NCBI GenBank assembly: GCA_043381765.1
Contig: JBHJMP010000892.1
Coordinates: 1 to 34,818 of the forward strand
Source of the DNA: Collodictyon triciliatum
Lineage: Eukaryota
Reading direction: 5' to 3'
Length of the DNA stretch: 34,818 nt
Under the pieces are notes generated by a model. It had not been told where the DNA came from, ran no database searches, and saw only the letters and a list, made by a program, of their open reading frames with translations. This document shows positions 4,601 to 31,606 of the stretch, piece by piece (the stretch's first letter is position 1; each line of letters begins with the position of its first letter). Both the position numbers and the translations under genes were made by a program.

Positions 4601-6230
4601 CGATTTCCGGCACCCTGGTTACAACAATGCGTTCCACATAGCTCTCGAACGTCCCGAAGCAATCACATACAACGACCGCTCCGTAAGCCAAATGAACCCC
4701 ATCCCCATCCCCTTTCATTTCTTTCAGAGCGAGGGAATGTTCTGTCATGTGTATACTGATTATTTAGGTGCTCGAAAACTATCACCTCGCCCAAGCCTTC
4801 CACTTGATGTTTGACCCAACAAAAGATTGCAACATTTTATCAAATTTATCCAAGCAAGAGTACGTGCGTTCCTTCAATTTAGTTGTGCAATATACCGTAT
4901 TTTATTATCTTATATTTTCTTTTTCCTTTTCTCCTTTTTTCTCTCTTATAATCCTAATTACACTTTGGAAGGCGATAATATCAAAAACTGAGTAACATGT
5001 GATGATATTTCAGTAAGAAAGAGTTGAGGGACACAATCATTGAAATGGTGCTGGCAACGGACATGGCCAACCACTTTGGCATCATGGGTCAATTCAAGAG
5101 TCAGCTTCAATCAGGTGAATTGATACAAGAAATAATCTCTCGTGTGTCCCCACTAAATATTTGACTGTTGGGAACCCCTCCCCCCGATGATAATAACTAA
5201 TGTGAGAAACGTGAGCGATAGCATAATTCTATTTCTCATTCATTCAAACCCAGACTTCAACTTGCAAGAGCGAGCATCGAAGCTTCTTATGTTGCGCGTT
5301 GCGATGAAATGCTGCGATATCGGACATACCACCAAGAAATCTGAGTTACATCGAAAGTGGACCGTCCTCGTTACCGATGAGTTTTTTATTCAGGTGGGTT
5401 GTTTACACATGTATGAAATGAAGAATACTTTTACGTTATACTGGATGTAATTTGCTAGTTTTATACTGTGTGCTTTTTTTTTTTTAATAAAAAAAGAAGT
5501 AATCCGCGACCGCTCATTTTTTTGTTGCTATCGAGCAGGGTGACAAGGAGAGGGAAAATAGCATTCCAGTTTCACCTTTCATGGATCGAACAAAGGAAAA
5601 AATCTACAAGTCCCAGCTCGGTTTGTGTTGCGGCCTAACCAAACCTCGTTTCAATATTTATTCTTTTTATGAATAAAATCTTGAACATTTAAATAATGAA
5701 CCATATCCAATACACATGCGGGAATGGAATGCAAGGGGAAAACAAAAACAAAAAACAATCCAATCGACTTCCTAAACCATCAATTTCATACCCCCTACTA
5801 TAGGATTCTTGGACTTTGTATGCAAGCCGTTGTTCGAGGCATGGGCTGCTTTTTCGCTCGAGGACAAGGATTTGGTTACTGGGCTGGAGCGCAACCATGG
5901 GGACTGGAAGGCTGAGTACGCTTGCAATCAGTCATCAATATCACACTTTGTTTCTGCCTTAGCTCGTTCACAAAAATCATATTCTCACGTTACCTTGTTT
6001 CTTTGCCCAAACCTCCTTTTTTTCCATTCTCTCTGTTTTGTTTTTGTCTTTTCTGTTTTTTCTGTTTTGTTTTTTTCTCTGTGTTTTTCTGTTGTGCTCC
6101 TTCTGGTCATGAAAATTAAATTTTTCTTACGGGCAACTCATTTACAAAACACGCCGGACCGTCGTTCTCATGCACACACCAATCGCTACAACACAGGTCT
6201 GACCGTGAGGCCGCAAAAGGGACGTCATAG
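1696..6230 (+). CDS. Class I 3',5'-cyclic-nucleotide phosphodiesterase with N-terminal 6-TM anchor (14 exons)
   Basis: Exons: 1696-2016, 2194-2635, 2811-3257, 3430-3537, 3709-~3800/3859 (donor ambiguous), 4019-4098, 4222-4423, 4550-4682, 4768-4859, 5014-5114, 5254-5393, 5539-5620, 5804-5915, 6197-6230; phases are compatible. PDEase_I motifs: FHNRIHAADV, HDFRHPGYNN, YNDRSVLENYH, VLATDMANH, KCCDIGH, EFFIQGDKE, SQLGFLDFVCKPLF. Six hydrophobic helices lie in exons 2-3. Confidence 0.95.
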
Positions 6231-13417: not shown

Positions 13418-13444
13418 NNNNNNNNNNNNNNNNNNNNNNNNNNN

Positions 13445-13475
<31 letters not shown>

Positions 13476-15823
13476 CGCTTTTTGAAATTTTGTAATTTTT
13501 GTGAGAGTGAATCCATGAATGCATGCCCATTCGTAGGAGACTGCGCTGTAGCTTTTCCAGGATGGCTCTCTCGTTCACGATTCTCTGACACGCCTTCGCT
13601 GGCACATTTCTCAGCTTCAGCTGGCGGCACGTTTTTTTCAGGGGATTCAGAGGGATAAGGATTCTTTGGGAAGCAGTTGGTCGATAAATCACCCATGTTT
13701 TTAATTGGACCCGGTGTCATGGACATTTGGGCCCTTGAAAGCTATATATAATAGAAGTTTTAACCTAAATAACGTTATAGAAATAATGGAAAAAGGAAAT
13801 AAAAGAAACGAAGTGGTATCAAATGTCTATATTGCGAAGAATTCAATGGATTACAGTTTCCAATCTTTGAGCCTTCGCAGCAACTTTTTCAGACGCCAAA
13901 ATATCCGTAATTGCTGGTCTGGTATTCGGGTCTGCAACTAAATTGGTTGGTGGGGTCTTGTTAGAATCGTGTCAGTTCCTGTGCATTTGGGAAAGAAAAG
14001 CATAATGATTAAAAAAACTATCTGGGTGAAACCATCATTTCTCACCAAGCATCATCTCTATGACATCTGCTAAATCTTGCGAGTAAAAATCAGGTATTGG
14101 TGAATGGGTCCCCTCCAACACTTTCTTTCCCAGTGATTTATAATCTTGAGCATTGTATGGGTACGCAAACGCGGCCATTTCGTAGATTACACAGCCTATT
14201 TTTTTTTGAAGCAGTTATCATACCACAGAAGAAAACGAGGAACAAATAAAATAGCAATCGATTTATGTAAGCTTAGCATCGCTTTATATAGGCGCTATTT
14301 CGTAATCTGTGTTTACTTCTGCAGCCCATAAAATCATTAAACTTTTGAGCGGTATGATATGAATAAAACATCACCTAATGACCATATGTCTGTCTTGCAA
14401 TTGTAAGGAACCTGGCGCCATACTGGGTTTTATCATGTAAATGCTATTAATTCATAGTGTGTTGTTTGTTTGTCTTTAAAGTAAAAGTAAAGCACAAACA
14501 GAACAAACAAACAGAAAAAACAAACAAAATCACGGCATCAACATGATACTCTGCCATACTCTCAGGGCTTTGATAATAAGGAGTCCCGATCATCGTTTTG
14601 GTAAGCTCTGAGTCTAAAATCTTTGCCACGCCCTGTCAAAAAAATTTTTTTATTCCACTTAAAATAAAAATACTGACAGATATTCTACGAATTTTAGAGA
14701 GAAGAAGCGAGAGATTTTCTCCTCTTATGAATGTAACTATAATTCGGTGAGGTAATATGCGAAAACTGCACGAATGAGAAATTAAATACCAGGTCCCCAA
14801 TTTTAACGTATCTGTTGTCTGTAATGAATATATTCGAGCTTTTGATGTCCCTGTGAATTATGCCCATTTCGTGAAGACACCGAAGCCCAAAGCAGAGTTG
14901 TATGAGAACAGACCATATCAGTTCCTCAGAAAAATGTTTGGGAGTATCTTTCGACTTTTTCTTCTAAATAGATAACCAGTGTGTCTGTCAATAACCATTC
15001 ATTTAAAGGTTATGACATCTTTCATCTAGAAAAAATAATTCAAACTCTTGGCGAATAACCTAATCGACCCAAAAACAGGGAACAAATCAAAACCTTTATC
15101 AGAGCATGCAAGTCTCCCTTTTGGGCGTATTCCATGACCTTGGAGGCATTTTCAAAGTTTTTTTTTAAAAAAAATAAAAACAGTTATTAAACAAATTCAA
15201 AATAAAAATTATCACACTATAGTTTATATATTATTGTGCTTGAAAAGTGCATATGAAACATGTTTTTATATTATTGTTTACATTTTAAGTAGGTAATAAG
15301 ATAGGGATTCTCATACAATAAAGAGCTTGTGCTCCTCAACGAAAGCCTCATAATATGATATGATGCAAGGGTGATTCACAGCAGCCAAGACCCTTATCTC
15401 TTCAAGGGCTCTGCTCCTATATATTTAAAAAAATAAGTGGGATAAAACCAAACACAAAACTCATTTTTATTTTATGATTTCGTATTATACAGCTATATTT
15501 GCGGAGTTATCCAGGTCAATTCACCACCACAAACCTTTCGTCCTTATCCATTCTTGATAGATTGATAACCTTCATCGCATAACTAGAAATATACCCATAG
15601 ATTTTGGTGAACGAGGACAATATTTTTTTTGAAATAATCGAATTTTGATATAGATTGGTAAAACAAAATTAAAAGTTAAATAACAGTTTGGAGGCTCCAC
15701 CCGAGTTTGTGACAACACAAAAATTTACTTGCATTTGTCTTGAACCCGAATGACCTTGTAGACTGCTCCGAAACCACCTTTCCCCAGTAAATCTCGCACT
15801 CGGAAATCCTTTAGCCCGCCCAT
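12533..15823 (-). CDS. NIMA-related (NEK) Ser/Thr kinase, DLG-type (FA2/CNK2-like), about 12 exons
   Basis: Spliced translation: [128 protein letters not shown], then a low-complexity tail with a poly-Ser run ending KFGRA*. The junction across the TAA repeat and N gap (13150-13530) is uncertain. Confidence 0.92.
13381..13474. repeat. (ATT)n microsatellite containing an assembly gap (N at 13418-13444)
   Basis: Directly visible; the true array length is unknown. Confidence 0.95.
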
Positions 15824-16855
15824 GAGATATATGTTCTTCTTAACACGCAATAAAGAGGACAATATGACTACATAAAATCGGAGCAATAGAACTTTAAATA
15901 TTTAATTTCATAAATAAATCATTAGTTTCTTTCCCTTTTGATGACTGAAATTGGAGGGAAAAAAGAAGTAGGGGAAATGGTGAGTGGCAAGATAATAAAG
16001 GTTTTTTTGGACAAATAAAACTCAACATATAAATGAGATTTATCTTTTCTTTGTTACACAGAATTATCGAGATTAAACTCAGCTGTGTATTTATGCATGA
16101 TGCAGGTACAATCACGCATATTCAAATGAAGCAGTGCAATCGACATATAATTTTTTTTTTAAAAAAAAAAAAAACTGTAGGTAGATTTGAAGCGAAAATT
16201 TTGTGTGTCCCTTTCTCTTAATTGCCACCGCGTCAAAAATTATTTTATCATTGGCATTATCCTGTTGCCGTTCTCTTGTTGGTTGACATAATTTAGATAT
16301 GCGTTTTTTTTTTTTTTCATCTTTCGGCATTATTATTGTAATTTATTTTATTTTATTTTTTAAAAAAAAGAATTTGGTCATAGAAATTGTTCATGCATTC
16401 GCATTAATGAAAGCAGGTGAGACAAATATGTTTTTACCTATTAGCTACTGTCCATGGAGAAAAAGCCAAATATAAATGCCATTTGGGAATAGAAAGAAAG
16501 GCATTTGATATTGAAAGCACTTGTGGATAGCATTAATTAGTGTGAATCGCCACACCACCGGTATTGAGTTTTTTTTTCCCCCTCTAATTTTCTCTGTGTG
16601 TTGATTCATTCCATCACTTTATAGATATTATTATTTTGGTTTGGGGTGATACTATTAGTGTGTGATGGGTTGTTGGGTTCATCATCGAGGATGTGAAATG
16701 CATTTCAATAGGTGGGTAGATTTGCCCAAGAGAAGGAAGGGAGGAAACCAATCTGCGCATGGCATTCACAGCAGTCTCCTCCTTGATTGTTGCTTTTCTT
16801 CTTCTTTCTTCACCTCCTCCCACCTGACCTGACCCGCAGAGAAGGCAGGGGCGGG

Positions 16856-18273
16856 TTAAACCAGCTCGGACAGAATCTTTGCGAACGAGGGCCGAGCACT
16901 CGGGTCATCGTCCCAGCACCGCTTCATCAGATCAACGAGCTTGGGATCTCCAGAGCGGGGCAGTGTCGGGCGCATTCCTTTGGCCACCTCCATGGTCAGA
17001 CGCAGCGGGTCGATGTTTGTGTACGGCCGCTGCCGGGTAAGCAGCTCCCACACCAGAATGGCATAGCTGTAAACATCAGCCTTCTCGTTGTATCGTGTGC
17101 CTTTCAATACCTGCGCATAAAAAACGACGTGGTGAATACGCGGTTGCATCCACATACAAAAAAAATGCCCCAGCCTGCGGAAGAAACATCACGCGGTGCT
17201 CGGAGTGGATGCAGCGATACTCAGTTTTTGTATCCGTATTGTTATTGTTGGTGTGTATCCACTGTTCTTGTAAAGAATGGATATTGTATTTGCACATGGA
17301 GATTGGTTGAATAAATGAGTACCTCTGGGGCGAGCCAAGCCTTTGTTCCGCACTTTGTCATGGTTTGGTTCTCTGCGCGAACGCGGGCAAGGCCGAAGTC
17401 GCAGAGCTTCACTTCCATCGGTTCCAAGGAGAAAATCTGTGGAAATGGGTGGGTGTGATTCAATCGGATTAATTAAGGAGGGAGTTGATGGTGATAATAG
17501 GCCATACAAGTATACACCAATAAATAAATAAAAAAAAATGACACATTTATTAAAGTAAGAGAGATGTCACCGAAGGAAATCGAATAAATTGGAAAGGTTT
17601 CAAGCGCATTACCAGAACATTAGGACTCTTCAAGTCGCGATGGCAGATGGGGGGTTGTCGAGTGTGCAGATACTCCATAGACTTTGCAACTTGAACCAGA
17701 ATTGTTCTTCTGATTGCGTCGTTGATGGCAAACTAAAACATAGTAATAAGTATGATTCACAATCATCGAGTTCACGATAACATATGTTTGACAGCTCGTG
17801 CCTCTTTGATAAAGACTTTAAGGCAAAATAAAAACCTTTTTATCCTCGATAAAGTTCTGCAAACTGCCGTGGGCTGCATACTCGAGAACGAAGCAGACAT
17901 TCGGCGCCTTCATATTGGCACCCACAAGCTTCAGGATATTTGGGTGGTCGAGGGTCCTGTATTAGACGCAAAAACATGAGCCATAGTCTAGACTTTATCA
18001 ATAGAAATATTCTTGGTTGGAGCAAAATAAACAATCTGTGGTATGATGTTTATCTTTCATTCGTTGTGTTATGGCATCTTTACTCACATCATCAGGCTGA
18101 TTTCGGATAAGAGGGAATACTGTTGTTTCTCGGGTATCTTTTGCTTTGAGAATTTCTTGATTGCAACTTCCTTGTCCTTGTAAGTTCCTTTGTAAACCGT
18201 GCCGAAGGAACCACTCCCAAGAACGACCTCTGATAATTTCAGCTTTTCCATTTCAAGGCTCCAAGTGAATTCC
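16856..18273 (-). other. Receptor kinase domain 2 (TKL)
   Basis: LGSGSFGTVYKG..VAIKKF, LDHPNIL, ICHRDLKSPNVL, KLCDFGLAR..TMTKCGTKAWLAPE, KADVYSYAILVWE, CWDDDPSARPSF. Confidence 0.95.
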
Positions 18274-21200
18274 TACAAGAAACCAAATGTGCTTAGGTAG
18301 ATGAAACAATTGTAGTTTTCTGTAAATCCACTAGAATGATACTTAATTAAATATTTGTGATTTGAGCTACCTGACGTTGTTGTTGTTGTTGCTGCTGCTG
18401 CTGACCGCTCTCATCGTTTGTGCTCACAATTGTCTGGAATATTGTTGAAGACTCTCCCGATTTCTTAAAGTACTCTGACCTCTCCCCCAAAGATGCAGGT
18501 GTAAGCTATACGCGTTTTTTTATTGGGCTAAATTTCTTGATATATTTGTATAATATTATACAGTTTGTTTCTTCGTCCTCTCTTTTTCATTAAACATAAT
18601 AAAGAAATAAAGTACGATTAAAAAATGGTGCATTCATCATACTTCAAAGAGATGGTCAACTGCTGTCATTCCCTTCAACATGTGCTCTCCCAAATCGTGA
18701 ACCAATGGACTTCCAAGTTCGTGAAGATGATTTCTTATTTCCTTTTGATAGAAAAAAAAAAAAACAAGACCGCATCATAGAGCAATTAAGTCATGTAAGT
18801 TATGTTAAATTCTATGAATTTTTATTGTTGTCTCCTTTTTAATTATTTTTTAACAAAAAAAAAAAGCTGAAGAAAGTAGCAAATGATGTAAAATGATATG
18901 CAAAATTCACTCCTAGACAAAAACGAAAAGGTATTGCGAGTCATTTACCTCGTAAGTCGGTTCGCTGATTGCAATCTGGCCACCAGCTGGAAAGGCTCCA
19001 ATTCTGTTTGCTCTGTTCACGGACTGTCCAAAGTAATCCATTCTCCCTGTCACAGCGTCTTCACGAGTCATCGGTTCGCACCAATGAACTCCCTTTAAAA
19101 ATAAAAAAATTCAGTGCCTATATAAAGTTTCTGTTTATAAATTAAATAAAGTAACATGCAGTCAAATAAAAAAATAAGCTATTAAATATTATAAAACAGA
19201 ATTCATGATTCAATACGACTGAGAATCCAGACCATACGAACGCGAAGTCCTCTGAAAAGGATTTTTTGGTCTACGCTCTCAATTGCTGTGGCCTTATGGG
19301 TGTAGATTTCAGAGGGCCATTCTGCCGTCAAGAGTAGTTCTTGAGCTCGCAGACAGAATTTCAAGGCATTCTTTGAAGATGTAAACGCAATGACGAACGC
19401 GTCGCCCTCCGTTCGGACTTCATAACCCTGTTTTGAGATGTAAACAAAGCTGAAATTTCAATACTAGAGAAAGTATGATATTAATAATATCGTTCAAATA
19501 ATACCCCCACAAAAAATGTATGATTCAAATTGTATGACCAATTATCATTAATAAAGAGTTAGATGCGAACTACCAGAGATAAATAAGATTTAAGATGACA
19601 TAAATACAATAATCAATTGATTAGTGGACAAACCTCAGTTGTTTTGATGCAACCTCGCATGATTTCGTTGTGAATGTGAAGTGCTGTCGCCATTTGCTCG
19701 TGGTATTTCTCCCACAACGCTGTTGAGCTCTGGACATCGGTAAAAACGAGCGCAACTTGACCTTTCGGCCCAGTGACCTTCTTTCGACCATTATCGGAGG
19801 AGCTTCTCATACTCGCAGTCATACTTCCACCCATGCTGAACGATAAACTGGAGCTCTTTTCGTCCAACGTTGTGCAAATTCTCTTTAAAATAGTTGAAAA
19901 GGTTGGCCTCTTTTCCATGTCCGAGTCCCAGCAGTTTTCCATCAGAGCTCGTATCTCTGATGGCATGATATCTTCCGGCGGTATATCAGGGCGCATACCG
20001 TTCTCAGCCACTCTCAAAGCAACAGATTCAGCAATTTCCTCTCCCTGAAATAGATTGAGGTTACCGATATCTGTATTGAAGTAAACTCTTGCAAAGAGAA
20101 AGGTGTTATTGATTGATTGTGCGCTTTTTTTAAGACATGATTCATCGAATGTGATTAGAAGATATAATTAAGTGGGTTACCTCGTTTTCGAATAAAGGAA
20201 AAAAAAAAGTGGGTTACCTCGTATGGGTCCATTCGCGTAAAGACTTCCCACATTATTATGGCGTAACTGTAAATGTCAGCCTTCTCCGTATATTTTTCGC
20301 CAAGAATAACCTCTGGCGCCATCCAAAGCAATGTTCCAGGAGGTTCATCAGAGGAGCTCTTTTTATCTTGAGACCCAGTTAGACCAAAGTCGCTAATGTT
20401 TACAAAGCATCTCGTATCAGTAAGTTTACACAGTCCTTGACATTATATGGGAATATGACTGGGGTTTATATCAATTTAGAAATTGGTTTACCTGATTTTA
20501 ACGTTCATTTTCTCGTCGAGCTATTTATTTATTTATTTATTACATTAAAAGCTAGCGTAATTAAGATGAACAAATGAATGGGTAAATGACGCCTTTCAAT
20601 ATATTTTTGAATCAGAGGAAAATGGAATTGAGCCTTAATCGAATCGAATATGACTTACCAAGAGATTAGGACTCTTCAAATCACGATGCAGAATCGGAGG
20701 GTTAGATAAATGTAAATATTGCAGACCTGCCGACAAAAAAAAAATAAGTATTTTTAATTGAGATATAAGGAGGAGCATAATTTCATTTTATATTTTTGTT
20801 TATACAATTATGGATGGTACTTCATAATGCTTAACTTATACTTGATGCGTTCATGTATTTTTTCAATAGAAAAAAAACCTTTTGCAGCGTCAGTGAGAAT
20901 TGACATTTTCATATGTACGTCGATAGGCAACGTTTCATCGTGCAAAACCTAAGATACATTGTGAATAGGTTAACCTTGTTTGATGCAGCAATTACAATTC
21001 TCATCTTTAGTTGTCATATGTATTTTGCAATCGAAGTTGAATTGGAGACTATATATGAAAGTAATTTTGTTTACAAAGGTAGTTTACATCATGTAAGCTG
21101 CCTCGCATCATGAGCTCAGATATAATGCATAGACGTTTGGGCTCCATACAGGCAGCCATATAAAGAACGACATTAGGGTGGCGAAGTTGTCTACCAATAT

Positions 21201-24200
21201 GTAACGAAAAAAAAATCAGCATATATTTGCTAATGAATTTTAATGTATTTACATAACAATAGATGATAAATCGCCTCCAAAAGAAAAGGATTTCCTTGAA
21301 TTTGATAACTTACACCATAACAGCGACCTCATCTTGGAATGCCTGTATTGATTTTTTTGTAATATTCTTTGCGCTGATTCTCTTTATAGCAACATCAGCT
21401 CCTCTCCAGAAACCAGCATAAACCTGGCCATTGGGATAAATGATTAATTTTTGAAGCATCTATTAGATGATATCTGAAGAAAAATAGAGTGGTTAGTTTG
21501 TAAGTTAAAAGTAACCTCGCCAAAGCTCCCAGCGCCCAGCAACCGCCCAAACTGCAAGTCTTCGTACTTGACATGTACGAACAACTGATCCTCTCGGGCC
21601 TTCATCTTCTTCATTTGGTCCCGGTAAAGAAGGCCTCCGATTACTACGAGAATGATAACAAACGCACTCGCGCCCCCAGCTATCCCACCAATAATGGCTG
21701 AGCTCAACTCATCTGAAATGAAGTGCTTAGTATATGAACTGGGTGGCTATTTCTATGCACAAACCACATCGAATGAAATAATGCACTTTCAAAATTCAAA
21801 TCAATTCGTTTAGCGGTGTATATTTTAAAGGCATTGAGTTCATAAAGTATATAAGCGAGGATGAAACACTCACTGCTTTCGTGGACATACTGACTACAGA
21901 TAGGCTTTTATTATTAAAAAATGCATTAATTAGTTGAAGTGAAAACTCGAATGCACAACATAATTTTATTAATGCTGAAAGATACATAAATAAATGTTGA
22001 AAAGGTACTGCGTCATTTGCTTGCTTGCATTTTTTGCACTCATTTGTCTTTTCATTTTCATAGTAACTTGCTGGGCATGTGCATTCTCCATCAACTATCG
22101 AGGAACTTGTCGGGCAATCTGTCCAAAAATGTAACCATGTGAATTTAGCTAATATTTATCTCATTGCAGCTTAGTTTTCTGCAAACAGCGAGAATAAATC
22201 TATAAATGTAAAAACGCTGTACTGAAGTATGTGACATTAAATCCCTGGCCGCGGTGGTTACTGCTAATATCAACCGAACTTTTTAGCTCCAGCGAAAGCG
22301 AATTATCCGCAGAGTAGAAAACTCCAAGGATTTCGCCTTTCAACTCCTCTGTTTTCGATTTTCCATCACTAGTTGACTTGTACGAGATGTAAAGCCTAAT
22401 GTTTTCGCAACATGTAAATGATATTTAGCACAGTGGTTACGACTAAAATTTTGTTTTCAAATTAAAAGAATCATATAGTAATAATAAGCTAGCAACATAA
22501 TCGTATACGTACATATCCCCTGCTGCGAGGCTGCCTCTGATGATGAAAGAGTTGGCATCCTTAATCATATATTTGCAATGGGTCCCACCGGGATATTCTC
22601 CCAAGCCACTTCCATCCTCGAGCAAGCTTCCTGTCCTTAATCCATGTACCGTTTTGGTATTTTTTGCATTGCAGAGACCTTTTTTTTTAAAAAATAAAAA
22701 AAATTAAAAATTAAATAAGCACTTGGTATATGTATATATAAAGGACCAATTTGACAATTAATTTATGCATCCTTTAATTACATAGATATGTGATTGAAAC
22801 TATCAGGCCAAATATCTTACTCGGCTTGTATAGGAATCCATAGGTACTGGAAAAGTAATCTGTACTCCCTCCATATATTATCAACCCGTCATCTGTTGCT
22901 ATTGAAGCATGACCACTTAACTTTGGGAGAGGAGCATCATCGCCATCTGGGTCCAACTGAATCCACGTTGATGTACCTTAGCAGGTAGTAAGCTCATTAA
23001 CGTTACTTTCGATGAAAAGTGGAAATCAAACGAAAAAATGGTTATTATCACCATGATTGTAGTTTGTATGATGTATAAAAATATATCATATCCGAGAGAG
23101 GAGGAAGAGTAAGAGTAAGAGTAAGAGTAAGAGTAAGAGTAAGAGTAAGAGTAAGAGTAAGAGTAAGAGTAAGAGTAAGAGTAAGAGTAAGAGTAAGAGT
23201 AAGAGTAAGAGCATTAAATGTAAGCACACCTATTTGATATATCCAAGTCTCATTGACACGAACTCCCTTAGCACTTATTCCTCCATAGACAACGAAGCTG
23301 TCTCCAAAGACACCGAAGCCCGCCTGATAAAGTTTGGGCCCATCTATGGTCACGCCTTGTAATTTTGTCCAAGAGTTCTCCACTGGATACAAAGGTCTCA
23401 TGATTAGTGATGGCATTAGCTGTGGGGATAAAGGATGGTAAGTGTCTCATCTCCCATGGAAAAATGAGAAAAAATGCATATGTATATTACCCATTCAACT
23501 TACAGTTATCGTAGAACCAGACATCTCCAAGGTTTCGGTTCTTGAAATCACGACCTCCATATACAACAAACCCATTCAAATACTTTCCATACGCAAATCC
23601 TGTTCGGGCAATCTATGCACCAAGAAAAAGATATTTGGTATAAGAAATGGCAAAAAGTATTTAAAAAAAAACAGTTTTCGTCATTAACGGATCGTCCATG
23701 TAACCACAAACTTACAGGCCCTTTATTTGTAGGAGCTATGGAACTTATTGATTCGTCTTCAAAGTCGATTTTATAAACACTGGTATAATCTTCATACACT
23801 CCCGTGCGGACAGTGAGCTTATTGTGACAATTAGGTTTCAAATATAGCTTTCAATACATAGCCAATATATTATGAAACATGAGCATTCCTCTCATGGATT
23901 CATTGGTATGGTCTTTCTTATAATCGACTTACATAGCCTCCCCAAAGATATGCCGTTGAGTCCTCCATAATCATAGAGAATCCTTCCTTTTCTAAAATGT
24001 GTTGACCCAAACCAAGGCTGGATGAAAAACTGACGGACATCCATGATGCGGCTATTAGAAATGAAATGATAATGAGTACTGAATTGAGAAGTATCCTCAT
24101 ATATTTATAGGGAATAAGTAAAAGGAGAATTTCATTTGGTTGCGTATCTATTATTAGCATACTTTTCTGTTTGCCATTCAGCACATTTGTCATATCAGCC

Positions 24201-27200
24201 GTCCAAAGTAATCCATCACTGAATCCGTCTCCACTGTCTCCACCAAACACATAAATCTTATTATTGTAGAATGTAATCATAGCATTGCTTCTGGGAGATG
24301 GAGCTTCAAGGCTTGCGTCGTAGTTAATAAGCATCGTCCATCGATTATTTCCTTAATTAATCGAGCAGTTTTTTTTAATAATAAAAAACTTCAAAATTTA
24401 TTGTCTACATTTAATAAAGATGAACGAGGATTATCATTAAATGGGGAAGCTAAACGTAGGAGGATACCTTTGTCAAAATACCACAAATCGTTGGACAATT
24501 GCTCCTGGTGGAGTTGGACATACCCGCCAAACACTACGTATCCCCCAGGCACGTTTGTAACGGCCGAGTTGCGTCTACCAAGTGGTTCGTTCAAACTTGA
24601 TGAGGAGACCCAGTTCTTCTCATCTGTAGCGATAGTAAGTTGCATTTTTTATTTTTTCTTTCAATTTGTGCAAGATGATGGGGGTGTTGACTTTGGCAAT
24701 AGTAGATTGCATACTTGAGAAGTGAAAAAAACTGCTCATGGAACATTTCTAGTCAATATAACCAATTAACAACACTCTCACCCATGTCTAAGCCCCACAT
24801 CCAGTTAACGTATCCTGCACTGTCCTGTGTAGAGCCTCCAAACATAACCAGTCTATTTCCCAAAATCGCTAGTGTGGAATACTGAAGAGGCGGTGGAGCA
24901 TTTAAAGGTAAAATGTTCGTAGTGGGATTGACAATGCGATGCTCCAGACTCAAATCATCTGATTGTGGATGGAGCAATTAGGTTTTTTTTAAAAAAAAAA
25001 AAATGATAAAATTGAAATGACTCATTTCATAACCTAATGATATATCGATTTCGACTGCTTTCTATATGTAATTCACTGATAAACCACCGAAAAATGCGTA
25101 TAATTATTTTCTTTCATTATATGGTAGTTATATTGTAATTAACTTAATTAATAGAGTTTTTCTACTTGGGATTACCTTTTGAGATAACTACGAGGTCTCT
25201 TAAATTTTTCTCCTTGGAATATCCTCCAAAGATATATATTTCTCCGTTGTACTCTACTGTTTGAATGTTTTGGCGAACTGCTTGGCACTTCTGGGGATTA
25301 GCCGTACATCCCAAGCACGGATTATTTGATAAAGCAGAAGCTGGTGTCCACTTGGAAGATTCTATAATATTGTTAGATATATAGACCTTTGAAGAAAAAA
25401 GCAATAAGAGAACAGAAAAAAAAGCATCATGAAGAAATTTCGAAAAGAAAAAAAAAAGACACTTACTGATATCAAATATGTATACGTCGGAGAGTTCTTG
25501 GATTCCATTGTAGCCGGCGAATAGGATTAGCTTTTTATTTGTAATCCATGAGGCATGGAATGCAAGTGGTGGTGACATGGTTTCGCTCGAAGTGGTCCAC
25601 TTATCGGTCGCTGAAAAGTTATTTAAGACCAGTTAGTTGTAGTTGGCTTGGTGTTTATTGACTGATTGTGAAACAAAAAGAGTAAATCCTTTCATAAAAT
25701 GCCAATAATTGACAAAATTGGGTAAAGTATCCTTTTTTTTAAAAAAAAATATCCTGCTCAGTTTTACACTCCCACTCACCAATATTGTAAATATTCATAG
25801 TGGACAATACGTTCCCTTGAGACTATGAAGATAGAATAGAATTTTATGCTTCACTCCAAATGGCATATATGAACGATTATCTTATGAGGAAAACGAAAAA
25901 AATTATTACGTCCATTCCACCGTGAATGTAAACGTCTTGGCCATCATATGCGCAACTGTGTCCATATCGGTTCAGAGGATATCCAGACAATTTCTTCCAC
26001 TCATACGTGTTTGAATTGAAAGTGTATGTGTGTGTATGATTTACAGAAGGGGCAAGTCCACCAACATAGTATATCAAATCCCCTTTGTTTAAGAGGCACA
26101 CACTTTGGCGACTCGGTGGGAGGATTCCGGTAGCCCTGATTCTGCTCCAAGACAATGTATCTATAATTTTTCAGAAAATAGACCAAAATATATACTTGTA
26201 AAGAATGATTTATGACACAGGCATACTGTTGATAATATGATTGGATTACAGTGGACTAGTTTTGGAAAAAAAATTAGACAAAAGGCTTTTTTAGCCCTTG
26301 TATTTAATTGAAAAAAAAACCTGCGCTGGTCACTTTGAATGTAGACACAGGAGTATATTGCGACTCATCCTTGCTCTCGTCTTGGTAGAGGCAGAATATG
26401 TAAATATTCTGGCCATCACTAACAGAGCGTGGGTACTTGCACGTTGGCATAGAATCAGAGTAAAGTCCCCAATCTCCATTTTCGACTAACAATAGGAAAT
26501 CGTATGTTAAACATTAAGAAAGAAAAATAAATAATAATAAAAAAAGACCGGGGTATCGAAATGTCAAAGACCTGATAAATCCGTGGTGGTTGGTGGGTTC
26601 TTGGCAATACAATAATCCTACAATTCCAATTTTAAGACTTTGAAAAATATGTATGATTTTTTCTCTCGGGTGGATGAGGTGTTCTTTTTTTTTTTAAAAA
26701 AAAAAACTCTTGTCTTTATTATAAAAATTATTTGTACCTTATTCTTTTCTGGCTGATTATAACCACTCGGGCAAGGGTAGCATTGCCCTCCGATGGTAAT
26801 GTAGTTATTTGCAGGACATTCACAGACTCCGCTAGAGCTCATAAAACCGTACTCACATCCTTTTGTTTTTCAACGGGCATTTAGCAAAATTTCGGTTTCC
26901 TTCTCTATTACAAGTAGATGAAAATGTACATAATGTAAGAATTTTTTTTAAAAAAAAAGTTACTGATCAAGTCAAAAGTGAATCCAGGCAAGTTGGTTAA
27001 CTTTGGGCCCGTTGTAAATCTAATTTGGAATTCTCCTCCTGGTATACTAACTCTAGTTCCTTGAGCGTATTCATGAATTGTTGTCTGGTATTTTGATTAT
27101 CTCTTAAATAAAAAACGAGGTATTTATCCATATAGTATTTAAAATAAAGATGAAGTCCAAATAAAAATGAAAAAATGAAGATATTATTTTTCCTAGATTC

Positions 27201-30200
27201 GACAGAAGTCCAAGAAAACCTAGCCATGTGATGTACGAGTAAAAAAAGTAGGATAGCATATTGAAATTTGCGTACTTCTCCTTCAAAAGTTGATTGTCCG
27301 TTAATGACAATTTTTCTATCGGCACATTGAGATGGAGTTGTGATTGTTATACGTGCATCTTCATCCAACTGAATCATCTTCATCTATTGATGCTCGAAAA
27401 ATTAACTTGCCAACTCATAAAATTACTAGTGATATGTAATTATTTCAATCATATGGCTATTGCTTTACTCACGATGAAGTTGTTCGCTCCAGTTATAGCC
27501 CAGGTGCAGTCGGTGTAAGCCATATATGTGAAATCTCCACTTTGGTCAGTAACAACTTTTTGTCCCTTATTGTAGTCGATATAATTGGTTCCGGAGCAAA
27601 ATGATTTACCTGAAAAAAGGTATTTCAAAACAAGTACATATCACATGTATTGAGAGAAATAAAAAGGAAATTCAGGCACAATATTTCTTAAAAAAAAAAA
27701 ACAATAATGAATATGAACACCAGAAGAACAAGACCCCTTTTATGATTACCAATATCGTATCCAAGAACACGTGAATCATAAGTCGAATAAACGTTAGGCT
27801 GGGCAAGTAATATATAATTCTTCAACACTATAGAATTGCTAGATGAAATTGGAGCTGGTCGCTCGGGTGCTGGTGCCTGTTTTCCCCATTGCTCGTGGTC
27901 TAGTGGATATTTGGTTTTGAAGCTTATGAGAATATGCAAGGTGTATTGATGTCATTTTTTCTCTTCATTCGAAAAAAAAAAAAAAAGAAGACTCAAAACA
28001 TGAATGATTTATTTAAGCTGTTTAATTCCAACTCACAGAAATCAAAGAACCATATATCATTGGTGAATCCGCCGTATTTGTCATTGCCTCCAACAAGAGC
28101 GCCCATCCCCACATTGACCATATTGCTCGATTCGATTCCTTGTTGATTGCCTTCAGACCCAATAGCTCGGTAAAATGATGTCGTGACTGATATTAATGTG
28201 TTATTTAATTATTGTGATAGAAATTCCAGAAGATTCATGTAAGGAGTAAATGAGTATGATCTATGTTGAAAATAAAAAGGAGCTCTCTTTTCTTGAATGA
28301 CGTACCAGGGTTGAAGCAATTAATGTCTGGTAAAATCGTGCTTGACCCGTACACTGTTCCTCCTTGAATGCAAAATTTATCATTTCGCACGAATCCTTTC
28401 GCTCCGACTCGCAGAAGAGATGAATCAGGTAATTCATAGTCAGAAACCGTCAAGCTCTCCAAATCCAAGACGTATAGATAGTCTTCCATCATATTTGTGT
28501 AGTAATAGTAGTATGTGGTGAAATCATGGAGGAAGCCTCCAGTGATGTAAAGTGATGACCCAATAACACCATAAGAGGGGCTCCTCAAGAGACCAAGAAA
28601 TTCGTATCCACTAGGAAGATTGATGTATGTCCACGTCCGAGTTGCTGATTATTGATAATATAAAAAGTAAGACAGTATTGAGTAAGTTGAGATAATAATA
28701 TGGATATCATTTTTCCTAAGAGTTCGTTTGTGTAAATGACGGCAATGTGTGAAGACGAGGGGTATAATACGTCTGAATTTACCAATATCAAACTTGAAGC
28801 TCACAGCAACACCAATTCTTATATCTGAAAGTCCTCCAAATATGTATGCCGTGTCATTGAAAACCCCCATATACTGTAAAGAAATATTTAAAAACAAGGA
28901 TCAAATTAAAATTCGAAACTTTGCTGACGCAAGCTTATTTTGGATGAATTACTCACCGGATCGTACAGTCCTGACGGAAAGTCTGTATATGCATAAGGAT
29001 CTGCTAGTGTCAAAGGGAATAGATTCGTCCATTTGCGAGTGTCTATAGTCATGAAAATTTAATGATAGGTGAATTCGTTCGAAGGAACCTGTCAGATATA
29101 TATGTAAATATTCTCATTTTGTTTTCGTTAGGTCTCATTTTCAATAAAAAAAAAAAAAAAAAAAAAAAAAAATTACATATAAAAAAAAAAAAAAAATATT
29201 TTAAAAAAAAAAAAAAAAAAAAAAGGAACTTACCTATGTTGAACTCCCATAGGTCATTTAAGAACATAGTCCTGACACATCCGTTGTATCCTCCAAACAT
29301 TAGGAAGGTCGATTCACTACTTTTCCCAAGGGCTTGGCGGGCTCTTCCCATGGGACGAGCGTCGAAAGACTTCCGTGGAAACGTTCTTGAAGCTGTTTTT
29401 TTTTTAGGTGCATTTTTTTTAAAAAAAGAAGCTATACCCTTTTCTGTCTCGTCAAAAATCGATTACGTAGTAGCAAGGCGATATGCAACATGTAAAGAAT
29501 TAAAATTACTCGTATCAAATATCCAAATGGTATCATCTGTGCATCTAAACTGCCCGAATGAATAAACAACATCTTTTCCGACAGAAGTCGCTGATGCATA
29601 AAGTCTTGGCTTTGGATATTGAGAGTCATACGGGTACGCTCCAATCATGTTTCTGTAATTGACCATGTAAACGATTTCCTTTTCGTCTAAAAAGGACAAT
29701 TTTTGTGATAAATGTTTCAAACAGAAATATGGTGTCATCCAAGATGCAGTATTTTGCCCATTGAAAGAAAGAGATTCAAATTGTCAAAAGATAATAGTAG
29801 TAACATGGTGTATACCTAAGTCCAATATGTATAGGATGGGGTCTGCAGAGGACGATGTGTCGTACATCGTCCCACTTATGATGATCAATTCAGATCCGAC
29901 GAGGGCTTTGGCAGAGAGACTTGAAGAAACCTTAACACCGGGATAAGGAAACGAGACACTGTTTTTTGACCAAGTCGAAGTAGCTGCAAGCAACATGATC
30001 AGTGAGGCTTGATTACTTGAAGACGTTACCAGATGCATTAGTTAGTCTACAATATAGAGTTAGCGAGGAGGAAAAACTCACTGAAATTAAATATCCACAA
30101 ATCTGTCATCATGATTCCACGAGAACCACCGTAAATGTAGAGCTGGTCATTGTAAAAGGCATATGCAGGAGTGTCAAGTGCAGGTGCAGTCTGTTGGTTA

Positions 30201-31606
30201 TATTCTACCTCGCTCCATTCATATGTTTCTAATCGATTAAATATATTCCAAGTGTTGTTTTAATCTTAAGATTTTTTTTCTGCACATCGCAAACTTTTTT
30301 TTTCCTTTATTCGATTCAAAGTGTAGCGAGATTATGCCTGCACATCGCAAACTTAAAAAAAAAAAAAAAGAAATCGAATTGATGAAATATTGTTCTTAAT
30401 AGTAAATATATTGTGGTAGGAAGCGGGTGATGAAGAAAACACTTTTTTTAAAAAAAAAAATACCCAGGTTGAATGTCCACATATCGGGTAGAAGCCCGGT
30501 TTCAGCTAGCCCGCCGGTAACGTAGGCTATTCCATTTCTAGTAAAACATATGGGAAATCGCCGACCATCAGGAATAGAGTCACTTGGAGAATAGAGTGTC
30601 TCCCATGTCATAGTCGACATGTCCAGAATGTGCATGTCATTCATGTAGACATCAGAAAGGCCTCCAAATAGTATTATCTAATAAGCGATCAGATGAGCTA
30701 TCCACTTGGAGTGTGGTGGAAGGTGGCAAATGAAAAAGCAAATAAATCTTGAAGTAAACCATTTGAACTAAATATGAAACTATGTAGAACGAGAATCATT
30801 CATCATACGAGACGAAAACGAAGGAACAATGATAATTGAGCCTTGTTTGTATGGACTGGATATAACTAAGGGTAAATACCTTATCAGCAACAACTGCAGT
30901 GCAAAAATCATCGCGTACAGTAGGCGCTGGTCCGTAGGTGAAGACCACGCGTGATTCAAAGCTCTCTATATGTTTGATGGGTTTTTTTGTTATGTGCTAG
31001 TGTCTCATGACACATAACTCAAAGGTAAGAAAATATTATTCTGATATGCGTAGGTGCGCGAATACAAAAGATTTCGAAGAAGGCGGTAATGATAACGAAA
31101 AGCCCACCCAAGTCATCCATGATGTAGATGTGATCAACATAACGAACAGGGGCGTCCCAATCGTTTCCAAAACTTTGACAGAAAGAATGAAATGAGGAGC
31201 CTTTTATATAGACGCAACATTCAAAAAATGCCTCAAAATATTTTTTATCTAAAAAAAGAAACGAAATGAAATGAAAACCTCTCAGGAAAGAAAATGACGG
31301 AGTTGTTAAAGGTGACACTCGTGTGTGTTGTGAACGCTTGGGGGTACTCATTGATCATATTCCACGTGTTCACTTCTCCTCCGCGGTAAGCCAACGACTC
31401 TGCATCACGAAATCATATTAAATAGACTAAACAAATTATATAGATAATATAAATAATGAAATGAAAAATAATTGCACCAATATAAACGTATTGAAGTAAA
31501 ACAAATATATTAGTGCAAACAAATGTATACCTCCGGCAAGTAAAATGAGGAGCCCCAACAAAACGAAGCGCAGCACAACCAGAAAGGACGTATTGTTTCC
31601 TTTCAT
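16856..31606 (-). CDS. Giant single-pass receptor: SP-[Kelch x12-CUB-Cys-rich]x2-TM-TKL kinase-class III cyclase-TKL kinase (about 53 exons, roughly 2,500 aa by estimate)
   Basis: Signal peptide MKGNNTSFLVVLRFVLLGLLILLAG (ATG at 31606). I could join GT-AG exons continuously in phase to TAA at 16856-16858. TM segment AIIGGIAGGASAFVIILVVIGGLLY. Domain evidence is listed in the sub-features. Confidence 0.9.
18643..19775 (-). other. Class III nucleotidyl cyclase domain (fungal CYR1/trypanosome/amoebozoan type)
   Basis: VALVFTDVQSSTALWE, GYEVRTEGDAFVIAF, FRGLRVRMGVHW, RMDYFGQSVNRANRI..GGQIAIS, DLGEHMLKG. Confidence 0.95.
19860..21570 (-). other. Receptor kinase domain 1 (TKL/Raf-like)
   Basis: LGAGSFGEVYAGFWRGADVAIK, FQDEV, LRHPNVV, ILHRDLKSPNLL, KISDFGL, GTLLWMAPE, KADIYSYAIIMWE, CWDSDMEKRPTF. 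Confidence 0.95.
21874..22678 (-). other. Receptor ectodomain: CUB-like domain 2 plus Cys-rich stalk
   Basis: LCNAK..LLEDGSGLGEYPGGTHCKYMI...SLSLELKSS..RGQGFNVTYF, then CPTSSSIVDGECTCPASYYENEKTNECKKC..PICSQY. Confidence 0.75.
22821..26487 (-). other. Receptor ectodomain: Kelch block 2 (12 blades)
   Basis: Examples: RYGHSCAYDGQDVYIHGGMD, IYIFGGYSKEKNLRD, LVMFGGSTQD, YVVFGGY..SNDLWYFD, PSPRSNAMITFYNNKIYVFGG, FVVYGGRDFKNRNLGDVWFYD, LSGHASIATDDGLIIYGG. Confidence 0.88.
23105..23210. repeat. (AAGAGT)n hexamer microsatellite in a receptor intron
   Basis: Directly visible; it produces the spurious LTLTLT run in the ORF track. Confidence 0.97.
26571..27610 (-). other. Receptor ectodomain: CUB-like domain 1 plus Cys-rich (ephrin-receptor-like/GCC) repeat
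   Basis: FCSGTN..VVTDQSGDFTYMAYTDCTWAI...FQIRFTTGPKLTNLPGFTFD, then CEYGFMSSSGVCECPANNYITIGGQCYPCPSGYNQPEKNKDYC. Confidence 0.72.
27750..31400 (-). other. Receptor ectodomain: Kelch block 1 (12 blades)
   Basis: Repeated P..R...hydrophobic-GG...D-L/M-W-x-F-N/D...W units, e.g. IILFGGLSDVYMNDMHILD, AYVTGGLAETGLLPDMWTFN, LYIYGGSRGIMMTDLWIFN, FLMFGGYNGCVRTMFLNDLWEFN. Blades 1, 5, 6 and 12 are divergent. Confidence 0.85.

Follow-up and report, generated by a model that had tools for sequence, protein, structure and literature searches.

Animal membrane guanylyl cyclases of the natriuretic-peptide type are single-pass receptors whose class III cyclase follows a kinase-like domain and works as a dimer. 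They have an ANF-receptor ectodomain, a single pseudokinase homology domain and no second kinase. In cyclase kinases, as described in the main text of two reports (PMC4053784, PMC4758236), "an extracellular receptor domain" and a membrane helix are followed by a class III cyclase located between two Ser/Thr-type kinases. According to the same reports, Acanthamoeba castellanii has 66-67 genes of this type and Physarum polycephalum has 43, and these receptors are presented as peculiar to Acanthamoeba, then Physarum, plus giant viruses.

Here we analysed a contig of Collodictyon triciliatum (JBHJMP010000892.1; the window, 34,818 nucleotides). The region 16856..31606 most probably corresponds to one transcribed gene, which encodes a membrane receptor with type I topology that belongs to the kinase-cyclase-kinase ("cyclase kinase") family and carries a duplicated Kelch-CUB-Cys-rich ectodomain. 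Compared with the published descriptions, the protein shares with amoebozoan cyclase kinases a receptor ectodomain, a single membrane-spanning helix and two kinases with a class III cyclase between them, and differs from them in the duplicated Kelch-CUB ectodomain of ~1640 residues. Moreover, its closest relatives are found in Diphylleia rotans (CRuMs), and not in Amoebozoa. The single pass and the kinase-like domain preceding the cyclase are also features of natriuretic-peptide-type guanylyl cyclases, from which the receptor is set apart by their pseudokinase, their ectodomain and the second kinase that they lack.

Gene organization

The gene is located on the minus strand, running from 31606 to 16856, and all features described below map to this strand. 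The coding region is split into 53 exons (7518 nt) and encodes a protein of 2505 residues. The frame contains no internal stop, all 52 introns of the model are of the GT-AG type, and intron lengths range from 83 to 253 nt (median, 131). The start codon at 31606 is the first ATG in its open frame, and the stop codon, TAA, maps at 16858-16856. An earlier sequence-only reading, in which the strand was not stated, had placed both ends exactly and proposed a single continuous spliced frame, as found in the model.

Pfam searches of 95 stop-to-stop ORF pieces of the minus strand identified Kelch families in nine pieces (30677..23051), Guanylate_cyc in two (20167..18916) and kinase families in nine (21309..16859). 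None of the plus-strand frames across the gene region, inspected by eye, is comparably open. Hydropathy profiles of the 2505-residue protein revealed two hydrophobic segments only, the signal peptide and a helix starting at about residue 1665, which agrees with the signal peptide and single transmembrane segment proposed earlier. Start codon and signal peptide (residues 1-25) are encoded by exon 1 (31531..31606), as indicated by the first ATG, hydropathy windows 4-12 and the aligned N-termini of homologues. Introns are mostly in phase 1 in the ectodomain part (24/35), a bias resembling that of shuffled extracellular modules, and in phase 0 in the intracellular part (12/17). A microsatellite is present within the gene at 23105-23211. 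Adjoining genes on the contig include a phosphodiesterase gene, an ankyrin-repeat gene and a kinase gene.

Homologues and evidence for a single gene

Four full-length transcript ORFs from D. rotans, 2469-2511 residues long and 27-42% identical to the Collodictyon protein, are colinear with it from the signal peptide to the last kinase. P0153 (2504 residues, 41.9% identity), P0155 (2505 residues, 39.2%) and P0159 (2469 residues, 30.6%) align end to end, and P0168 (2511 residues) is 27% identical over nearly its full length in BLASTP alignments. All are single Trinity transcripts in a public protein set, and Pfam identifies Kelch families, two kinases and Guanylate_cyc in each of them. Because of this colinearity, the fusion of ectodomain and enzymes is regarded as real and conserved. 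The sequence-only reading was to be abandoned if the Kelch and kinase regions proved to be separate genes; in the four D. rotans transcripts, the Kelch ectodomain and the kinase-cyclase-kinase region are carried together.

RNA contigs X1 and X2, derived from a relative 90-99% identical in sequence, are spliced and were aligned over 16500-23100. Of the 16 intracellular introns, 13 are directly confirmed by these contigs, in which they appear as CT..AC joints. X2 record 4 (2206 nt) extends from the poly-A end to kinase 1. X1 record 3 (1031 nt) covers the start of the cyclase, kinase 1 and the membrane-helix exon, and continues for another 29 letters upstream; the lengths of both records match the modelled exons to the base. 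By arithmetic from the alignment, the RNA contigs lack 6 nt between exons 46 and 49. X1 and X2 contigs stop at 16601 with 18-21 loose T residues (plus strand), which mark the poly-A site and delimit a 3' untranslated region at 16601..16855. Sequence sets X6 and X3 matched the same interval in short, dissimilar pieces only. Transcription is demonstrated for the 3' half of the gene, and the span seen in RNA as one mRNA runs from the membrane helix through the poly-A end.

No displayed RNA contig in the aligned interval spans 22009 to 21712, where the ectodomain meets the membrane-helix exon, and RNA depth, which is 42 at the 3' end, drops to ~4 over the exons of the second CUB-like stretch, both of which appear from the depths to be covered by an RNA contig. 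Both observations would fit two adjacent genes fused by the model, one for a secreted or anchored Kelch-CUB protein and one for a membrane kinase-cyclase-kinase. However, the membrane-helix exon begins at an acceptor site in phase 1 and has neither an ATG nor a signal peptide of its own, X1 record 3 extends 29 letters past it, and exons 35-37 are colinear with the four single-transcript homologues. Furthermore, depth commonly declines toward the 5' end in long poly-A-primed transcripts. We consider two genes very improbable. In the single-gene model, the predicted link between ectodomain and membrane-helix exon is based on the 29 letters, which were assigned to 21874..22118 by depth arithmetic only, on homology and on the open frame.

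Modular organization of the ectodomain

The ectodomain would be a tandem duplication of a unit consisting of ~12 Kelch blades, a CUB-fold domain and a Cys-rich stretch. Kelch module 1 (27750..31399, exons 2-14, residues ~30-677) and Kelch module 2 (22821..26485, exons 20-32, residues ~853-1503) were delimited by Pfam matches on ORF pieces and by a blade profile of our own, built from 10 single-blade exons. The profile found 20 units, 16 of which at i-E < 1e-8. Nine units were found in module 1, to which three may be added from spacing, and 11 in module 2, which probably holds one more. The 24 blades (12 + 12) of the sequence-only reading are thus matched by 20 detected units and four deduced from blade-sized gaps. 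Module 2 is colinear with residues 1-582 of the homologue P0006. The ~12 blades of each module probably form two six-bladed propellers, so that the ectodomain would feature four.

Several matches in the Kelch region bear the Pfam name "Galactose oxidase, central domain", and the nearest relatives of the receptor come from D. rotans, a phagotrophic flagellate. Rather than sensing a ligand, the ectodomain might accordingly serve in adhesion or the capture of prey, or represent a galactose-oxidase-type catalytic Kelch domain, with the intracellular enzymes reporting contact. Yet the Pfam names denote generic Kelch repeat families, and adhesion and sensing can coexist. We regard this alternative as quite unlikely and favour a ligand-sensing receptor.

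CUB-fold domain 1 (26964..27609, exons 15-17, residues ~678-797) was aligned with the CUB-like stretches of homologues P0021 and P0006. CUB-fold domain 2 (22223..22678, exons 33-34, residues ~1504-1616) is the counterpart of the P0006 segment described below, and is contained in a local BLASTP alignment with P0006 showing 31.6% identity overall. Cys-rich stretch 1 (26572..26859, exons 18-19, residues ~798-852) is encoded by exons adjusted by homology, and Cys-rich stretch 2, together with a juxtamembrane exon (21874..22118, exons 35-36, residues ~1617-1663), is colinear with the homologues. The Cys-rich repeats noted earlier correspond to these two stretches.

At E<=10, Pfam detects no CUB match in two homologue stretches and five CUB-region exons, and no CUB, EGF or PSI family in the CUB-like and Cys-rich pieces; no family was found for Cys-rich stretch 1. 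The fold was assessed on an AF2 model of the P0006 segment (pLDDT 76.9, pTM 0.72). CUB-containing chains account for 31 of 43 Foldseek rows and CUB domains for 23 of the 24 top rows obtained with VIA-align (Z 11.9-8.6, rmsd 2.3-3.5 over 96-108 residues). As a lead only, a CUB family is also carried by each of the ten top-ranked named neighbours in a language-model comparison (scores up to 0.88). Alignment of our CUB profile with an attractin by hhalign gave a 28-column match with a probability of 2.6%. Both CUB-like stretches are predicted to adopt a CUB fold, a prediction made through the homologue P0006 only. Hence, the two CUB-like domains of the sequence-only reading are present as stretches and lack a Pfam CUB match, and the AlphaFold and Foldseek check that it had called for points to CUB for the P0006 segment.

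Comparison with attractin and MEGF8

The animal proteins attractin and MEGF8 (P0151, P0169-P0177) resemble the receptor in having Cys-rich stretches, a single membrane helix and extracellular Kelch repeats matched by Beta-prop_ATRN-LZTR1, and they have a CUB, a fold that is predicted for the receptor as well. MEGF8 features two Kelch regions, as does the receptor; it has two CUBs, and the Pfam scan shows one CUB stretch. The domain order differs, as the CUB precedes the Kelch repeats in the animal proteins and follows them in Collodictyon. In addition, animal modules carry one propeller each, and no kinase or cyclase is present.

Sequence similarity to the animal proteins is confined to the Kelch blades. 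With the Pfam propeller profile for Attractin/LZTR1 (PF24981; cut-off 50), P0153, P0155, P0159 and P0168 reach 234-290 bits, and the Collodictyon ORF pieces remain below threshold; a generic Kelch family outscores it. Outside the family, the P0153 ectodomain has its best matches in insect MEGF8 proteins, with E values of 3e-17 to 3e-13 and 8-12% of the query aligned. Apart from P0021 itself, a search with its ectodomain returned only an attractin and a fungal Kelch protein (E ~2e-4). Our CUB profile, at 2-5 bits, falls inside the Pfam CUB in P0151 and P0176, where that domain was mapped, and hits the corresponding position in the remaining eight of the ten attractin/MEGF8 proteins. P0151 and P0176 contain EGF, PSI, laminin-EGF and GBD_ATRN, none of which Pfam finds in the four D. 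rotans homologues (E<=0.01; E<=0.001 for P0168).

Judging from sequence, the likeness to attractin and MEGF8 is one of domain types, not of family membership. The comparison drawn earlier stands for domain types only, in line with the PF24981 and MEGF8 matches, and fails on domain order, on the EGF, PSI, laminin-EGF and GBD modules and on the generic Kelch score. Alternatively, the Kelch, CUB and Cys-rich module might be shared by ancestry with attractin and MEGF8, instead of having arisen twice. The module would then predate animals and have been wired first to kinases and cyclase, animal proteins would be enzyme-less descendants, and the receptor family would date back to the base of Amorphea, not just to Amoebozoa and their viruses. 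We hold this to be improbable.

Kinase and cyclase domains

Exon 37 (21516..21712), defined by hydropathy and X1 record 3, encodes the single membrane helix (residues ~1666-1693; hydropathy windows starting at 1665-1675) and runs into kinase 1; apart from the signal peptide, no other hydrophobic segment was found. Kinase 1 (19861..21553) is supported by Pfam, RNA-confirmed introns and the motif table, the class III nucleotide cyclase domain (18643..19768) by Pfam Guanylate_cyc, alignments to GRESAG4 proteins and the motif table, and kinase 2 (16859..18236) by Pfam and the motif table. A linker exon (18371..18505), whose translation contains a run of nine Gln, lies between cyclase and kinase 2. 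Minus-strand Pfam matches occur in the order kinase, cyclase, kinase, the spliced intracellular frame is continuous, and RNA contigs join the domains. The tail of TKL kinase, class III cyclase and TKL kinase that had been read from the sequence is borne out by Pfam, the motif table and RNA contigs.

Both kinases are assigned to the TKL type with intact motifs, as each retains the G-loop, VAIK, HRD..N, DFG and APE. PK_Tyr_Ser-Thr outscores Pkinase on most kinase exons in Pfam. When the last kinase exon was compared with solved kinases, the tyrosine kinases EGFR and MST1R/RON ranked first and second. TAK1, CTR1, ILK, MLK, RIPK and Roco4 are among the other top kinases, and the tyrosine kinases ITK, ABL, TIE2 and MET are further listed.

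Class III cyclases use two metal-binding Asp residues, a substrate pair (Lys/Asp or Glu/Cys) and Asn and Arg residues acting on the transition state. In Collodictyon (Guanylate_cyc, 28.4 bits on ORF 18916-19110; cut-off 21.9), both metal-binding residues are retained, as are the Asp of the substrate pair and the Asn..Arg pair, and an Arg occupies the Lys/Glu site, at which adenylate cyclases have the substrate Lys. The closest solved cyclases to two of the exons are the receptor-linked Trypanosoma brucei GRESAG4.1 and 4.3 (1fx2, 1fx4), although the matches are weak (E 0.08-0.4 on exons of 48-65 residues). In these alignments, metal Asp, substrate Asp and the Asn..Arg pair line up. The trypanosome enzymes differ in having Lys at the Arg position and no kinases.

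Relationships within the kinase-cyclase-kinase family

The exon at the kinase/cyclase junction finds proteins that match it on the kinase side as well as at the start of the cyclase, and in ~30 of the 51 proteins scanned the cyclase lies between two kinases. The ectodomains of these proteins vary extensively, and include solute-binding, ANF-receptor, 5'-nucleotidase, Cu/Zn-SOD, peroxidase and Kelch types. A word-index search with the same exon found no match among proteins up to 2000 residues, which are too short for the family. In a quick tree, constructed without Acanthamoeba or Physarum sequences, the Collodictyon protein is sister to P0153 (SH-aLRT 100) inside the kinase-cyclase-kinase family. 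A member with a Cu/Zn-SOD ectodomain is nested in the Kelch-CUB clade, and therefore ectodomain swapping on a fixed signalling tail is indicated. Further members were found in Fabomonas, Pelomyxa and Mastigamoeba; together with those of D. rotans (CRuMs), they make the family wider than stated in the main text of PMC4053784 and PMC4758236.

Moumouvirus (P0052) and Pandoravirus (P0102) receptors are among the matches and have an identical intracellular domain order. Given the kinase-cyclase-kinase genes of mimiviruses and pandoraviruses, the Collodictyon gene could in principle be a recent insertion from a giant virus. In contrast with such an origin, 52 spliceosomal introns interrupt the gene, transcription and splicing are observed, and the viral members, the ectodomains of which are PBP-like, fall in a separate starred clade of the tree. 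We find a viral insertion scarcely credible, and treat the gene as a cellular member of the family.

The word "Kelch" is absent from the main text of PMC4053784 and PMC4758236. Our literature search found no paper on a Kelch-CUB architecture with kinase-cyclase-kinase enzymes, and papers retrieved with "Diphylleia" concern the plant genus. The receptor belongs to a known family, to which it adds an undescribed Kelch-CUB ectodomain and a new lineage. It is not a new kind of receptor, because kinase-cyclase-kinase receptors with varied ectodomains have already been described in Acanthamoeba, Physarum and giant viruses. The novelty claimed earlier holds for the papers searched, but was overstated, as the family is described and four public D. 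rotans ORFs have the same architecture.

Proposed function and significance

Binding of a ligand or surface by propeller and CUB modules may pair or re-orient two receptor chains. Paired cyclase domains would then make a cyclic nucleotide, probably cAMP, and the flanking kinases could phosphorylate in trans or act on substrates. Cyclase output would follow chain pairing, because cyclase active sites form only as a dimer. The four propellers, dimer-driven activation, nucleotide specificity and the ligand are what we infer here. Coupling of ligand binding to both phosphorylation and cyclic-nucleotide synthesis is plausible, since all the predicted catalytic motifs are kept except one substrate-site residue.

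That residue, an Arg instead of the substrate-defining Lys, raises the alternative that the protein is a receptor kinase only, in which the cyclase is a pseudo-enzyme acting as a dimerisation or scaffold module between the kinases. The D. rotans paralogues bear on this point. P0153 has degenerate cyclase motifs, with Glu in place of Asp, His in place of Asn and Ser in place of Arg (Guanylate_cyc, 61.9 bits), and P0159 and P0168 have lost these motifs (27.9 and 21.0 bits, respectively). As three of the four paralogues are affected, cyclase activity appears dispensable in the Kelch-CUB subfamily. In contrast, motifs are fully canonical in P0155 (81.8 bits), and the Collodictyon cyclase has its two metal-binding Asp residues, the Asp for the substrate and the Asn and Arg that act on the transition state. 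A pseudo-cyclase is unlikely in our view, and a receptor with two enzymatic outputs is preferred.

An ectodomain of 24 Kelch blades and two CUB-fold domains, as proposed here, would be unusual in a unicellular eukaryote. In the Collodictyon copy, the three enzyme domains are apparently intact, whereas two of them have lost motifs in its closest D. rotans relative. The Collodictyon receptor may therefore be well suited to experiments on how a single receptor controls two outputs.

Structure of the receptor gene

Kelch, kinase and cyclase signatures are spread across many minus-strand frames of the region (G+C content approximately 37%); plus-strand frames are short and, on inspection by eye, unconvincing. 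Among 95 minus-strand stop-to-stop pieces, Pfam matched Kelch families in nine, protein-kinase families in nine and Guanylate_cyc in two. Along the minus strand, Kelch matches (30677..23051) are followed by a kinase (21309..19800), a cyclase (approximately 19800..18916) and a further kinase (18272..16859), in agreement with the kinase-cyclase-kinase tail proposed in the sequence-only reading.

The gene was modelled using a splice-aware dynamic programme based on codon versus intron trinucleotide scores and on donor and acceptor weight matrices, which were retrained on the programme's own output. The model was then adjusted by RNA evidence and homology. The acceptor of exon 7 and the 46-nt exon 19 were set by alignment with Diphylleia rotans homologues, bringing the length to 2505 residues. 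The final model consists of 53 exons (7518 coding bases) separated by 52 GT-AG introns of 83-253 nt (median 131). The ATG (31606) and the stop codon (16858-16856) are exactly the two ends previously proposed for this gene, the strand of which had not been stated and is the minus strand. A continuous spliced frame had also been claimed, and the model is indeed colinear with all four full-length D. rotans homologues, from the signal peptide through the C-terminus.

Exons 1-8 are located at 31606-31531, 31399-31279, 31172-31108, 30965-30880, 30677-30464, 30228-30082, 29983-29816 and 29686-29510; exons 9-16 at 29392-29234, 29042-28957, 28873-28783, 28644-28306, 28186-28037, 27899-27750, 27609-27473 and 27377-27276; exons 17-24 at 27084-26964, 26859-26738, 26617-26572, 26485-26321, 26160-25910, 25822-25780, 25610-25467 and 25361-25176; and exons 25-32 at 24958-24782, 24623-24468, 24351-24163, 24051-23933, 23817-23716, 23612-23504, 23382-23230 and 22976-22821. 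Exons 33-40 follow at 22678-22513, 22395-22223, 22118-22009, 21904-21874, 21712-21516, 21423-21314, 21190-21088 and 20948-20879, exons 41-47 at 20726-20659, 20520-20492, 20392-20218, 20044-19634, 19427-19233, 19092-18949 and 18741-18643, and exons 48-53 at 18505-18371, 18272-18088, 17956-17836, 17732-17613, 17436-17323 and 17110-16856. Ectodomain exons derive from the programme and homology only, and small errors are possible at some borders. Phase 1 introns, mostly found between Kelch blades, account for 24 of the 35 introns of the ectodomain part, a pattern consistent with blade exons multiplied by duplication. Phase 0 prevails in the intracellular part (12/17). The longest intron (23229-22977) hosts a GAGTAA microsatellite (18.5 copies, 23101-23211), which stays open over long stretches in each of the three frames.

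Transcript evidence

Two sequencing runs of a close relative, X1 and X2, both from one study, were compared over positions 16500-23100; their RNA nature is assumed, and the contigs, 90-99% identical to the window, are spliced. Thirteen contig joints with CT..AC ends (plus strand) match 13 of the 16 intracellular introns of the model. The remaining three agree with record lengths, as the 380 letters between exons 43 and 37 equal the sum of five exons. Both X1 and X2 stop at 16601 with a loose T run, indicative of a poly-A site, from which X2 record 4 (2206 nt) extends into kinase 1. The 1031 nt of X1 record 3 start at the beginning of the cyclase, take in kinase 1 and reach the membrane-helix exon, beyond which 29 further letters follow. 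As bin 21804-22024 has a mean depth of 1.29, equal to 9.81 x 29/221, these letters are placed at the 31-nt exon 36 by depth arithmetic rather than by a displayed joint. By the same arithmetic, a contig of depth 3.7 spans approximately 79 and 77 nt of exons 34 and 33. Between exons 46 and 49, the model exceeds the contigs by 6 nt, a difference that probably sits in a Gln run. A run of nine Gln residues occurs in the linker preceding kinase 2 (18371-18505).

Modular organization of the ectodomain

The protein features two hydrophobic segments only, and the ectodomain carries 30 Cys residues and six N-x-S/T sites. No Pfam family was found in the Cys-rich stretches. A profile derived from ten single-blade exons detected 20 Kelch units in the model, 16 of which had i-E values below 1e-8. 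Four gaps of blade size raise the total to 12 + 12, in agreement with the 24 blades previously counted. An attractin/LZTR1 propeller profile (289 positions) matches the homologues near end to end, over approximately 270 residues (for instance, residues 66-332 of the D. rotans homologue P0159), which fits six-bladed propellers; four propellers would then be present.

The Pfam CUB family was not found at E<=10 in two homologue stretches or in the five exons of the window CUB regions. Both our five-sequence profile and hhalign matched an insect attractin over 28 columns only, inside its CUB domain. In nine MEGF8 proteins, the single best match of the CUB profile was at residues 37-72 (2-5 bits), within the Pfam CUB domain (34-143 in the animal protein P0176). 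As these proteins are mutually orthologous, the matches are worth about two independent observations. For residues 420-536 of P0006, a Kelch-bearing relative, the ten best named language-model matches were all CUB clusters; the scores (0.85-0.88), below the level counting for more, were taken as a lead only. This stretch was modelled with AlphaFold2 from a six-row alignment including window exons (pLDDT 76.9, pTM 0.72). Foldseek searches of PDB with the model yielded 21 matches at E<=0.001, and among the 43 rows listed, 31 were CUB-containing chains and 12 other sandwiches. VIA-align against 48,161 representatives placed CUB domains in 23 of the 24 top rows (Z 11.9-8.6), the first unrelated sandwiches appearing at Z 8.0. 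The folded stretch is the counterpart of window CUB-2, inside a local BLASTP alignment with 31.6% identity overall. The CUB-like domains noted earlier are in line with this predicted fold, transferred from the homologue.

The window receptor has domain types in common with attractin and MEGF8, as had been noted, and MEGF8 proteins are the best matches outside the family to the ectodomain of P0153, a D. rotans homologue. We do not assign the receptor to the attractin/MEGF8 family, because the likeness is limited to Kelch blades, and Pfam finds in the window receptor family none of the EGF, PSI, laminin-EGF and GBD domains that the animal proteins carry.

Kinase and cyclase domains

Kinase 1 motifs are complete in the window and in all four D. 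rotans homologues (5/5). Kinase 2 motifs are complete in the window and degenerate in P0153 (VAVR, HRA, DYG). The solved structures best matching the last exon, which encodes part of kinase 2, are EGFR and, second, MST1R/RON; several other tyrosine kinases and the TKL kinases TAK1, CTR1, ILK, MLK, RIPK and Roco4 are also among the top matches.

The window cyclase features both metal Asp residues, the substrate Asp and the Asn..Arg pair, and has Arg at the position of the adenylate cyclase Lys. The same correspondences are obtained by alignment with the closest solved cyclase sequences, the trypanosome receptor cyclases GRESAG4.1/4.3 (E 0.08-0.4, single window exons). The cyclase is fully canonical in P0155, degenerate in P0153, and devoid of the first metal Asp in P0159 and P0168. 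Motif decay differs between paralogues: P0153 is affected in both kinase 2 and the cyclase, P0159 and P0168 in the cyclase, whereas the window receptor and P0155 retain the motifs.

The gene product is most likely a receptor. Since class III cyclases work as dimers, and given how single-pass receptor cyclases and receptor kinases behave, we favour a mechanism in which a ligand or contact would alter the pairing of two receptor chains; altered pairing would complete the active sites of the cyclase and allow the kinases to act in trans.

Relatives of the receptor

The 137-residue junction exon (kinase 1 end, linker and cyclase start) was searched against 1.84 billion representatives, matching 667 proteins at E<=0.001 and 60 at E<=1e-10 (best match, 53% identical). 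Pfam scans of 51 relatives, drawn from the best 150, revealed a cyclase between two kinases in approximately 30. Their ectodomains are of the bacterial solute-binding, ANF-receptor, PBP-like, 5'-nucleotidase, laminin-G-like, Cu/Zn superoxide dismutase, peroxidase plus DOMON, and Kelch types, the last being found in two proteins, P0006 and P0021. The three nearest clusters and P0168 are D. rotans Trinity transcript ORFs from EukProt. Additional members are found in Fabomonas tropica, Pelomyxa schiedti, Mastigamoeba balamuthi, Moumouvirus and Pandoravirus. The full-length D. rotans homologues P0153 (2504 aa), P0155 (2505 aa), P0159 (2469 aa) and P0168 (2511 aa) are 41.9%, 39.2%, 30.6% and 27% (BLASTP) identical to the model, respectively.

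A quick tree, built from the C-terminal 850 residues of 22 proteins and rooted for drawing only, shows the window as sister to P0153 (SH-aLRT 100), and all D. rotans members form one starred clade (support 98). Viral members fall in a different starred clade. P0010, a D. rotans protein with a Cu/Zn-SOD ectodomain, is nested among Kelch-CUB members as sister to P0155 (SH-aLRT 98), which suggests an ectodomain swap inside the clade.

Neighbouring genes

PDEase_I (3'5'-cyclic nucleotide phosphodiesterase) was matched in three plus-strand ORF pieces at 4428-5447 (Pfam; E 2e-15, 2e-5 and 1e-9), denoting a gene for a cyclic-nucleotide-degrading enzyme; the receptor gene has its 3' end about 11 kb away, and this proximity to a cyclase receptor gene is probably due to chance. 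Ankyrin-repeat ORF pieces map at 8896-10036 on the plus strand (Ank_2, E 3.6e-15). A run of 27 Ns at 13418-13444 is an assembly gap. Another protein kinase gene, distinct from the receptor and likewise interrupted by introns, closely follows it downstream on the minus strand (about 14700-15900), with Pfam Pkinase on ORF 14697-14963 and tblastn matches at 14742-14912.

Relationship to known cyclase kinases

According to the Acanthamoeba genome report, 67 cyclases combine "an extracellular receptor domain" with a single helix and a cyclase between two Ser/Thr kinase domains, and cyclases of this type also occur in giant viruses (PMC4053784). Physarum has 43 "cyclase kinases" (PMC4758236), and a Protostelium paper restates the description of kinase-flanked cyclases (PMC5804921). 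The word "Kelch" does not occur in the main texts of these three papers, the supplementary architecture figures of which may show more. Literature searches returned nothing relevant on a Kelch-CUB cyclase-kinase architecture, Diphylleia cyclases or CRuMs genomes, or on attractin/MEGF8 in unicellular organisms. The anatomy given in the sequence-only reading holds, and its novelty was overstated, as two of these reports already describe the kinase-cyclase-kinase family (PMC4053784, PMC4758236). The window receptor adds a new ectodomain variant to a known receptor family and comes from a lineage for which the family had no prior description; its Kelch-CUB architecture is conserved in D. rotans, where at least four paralogues have it.
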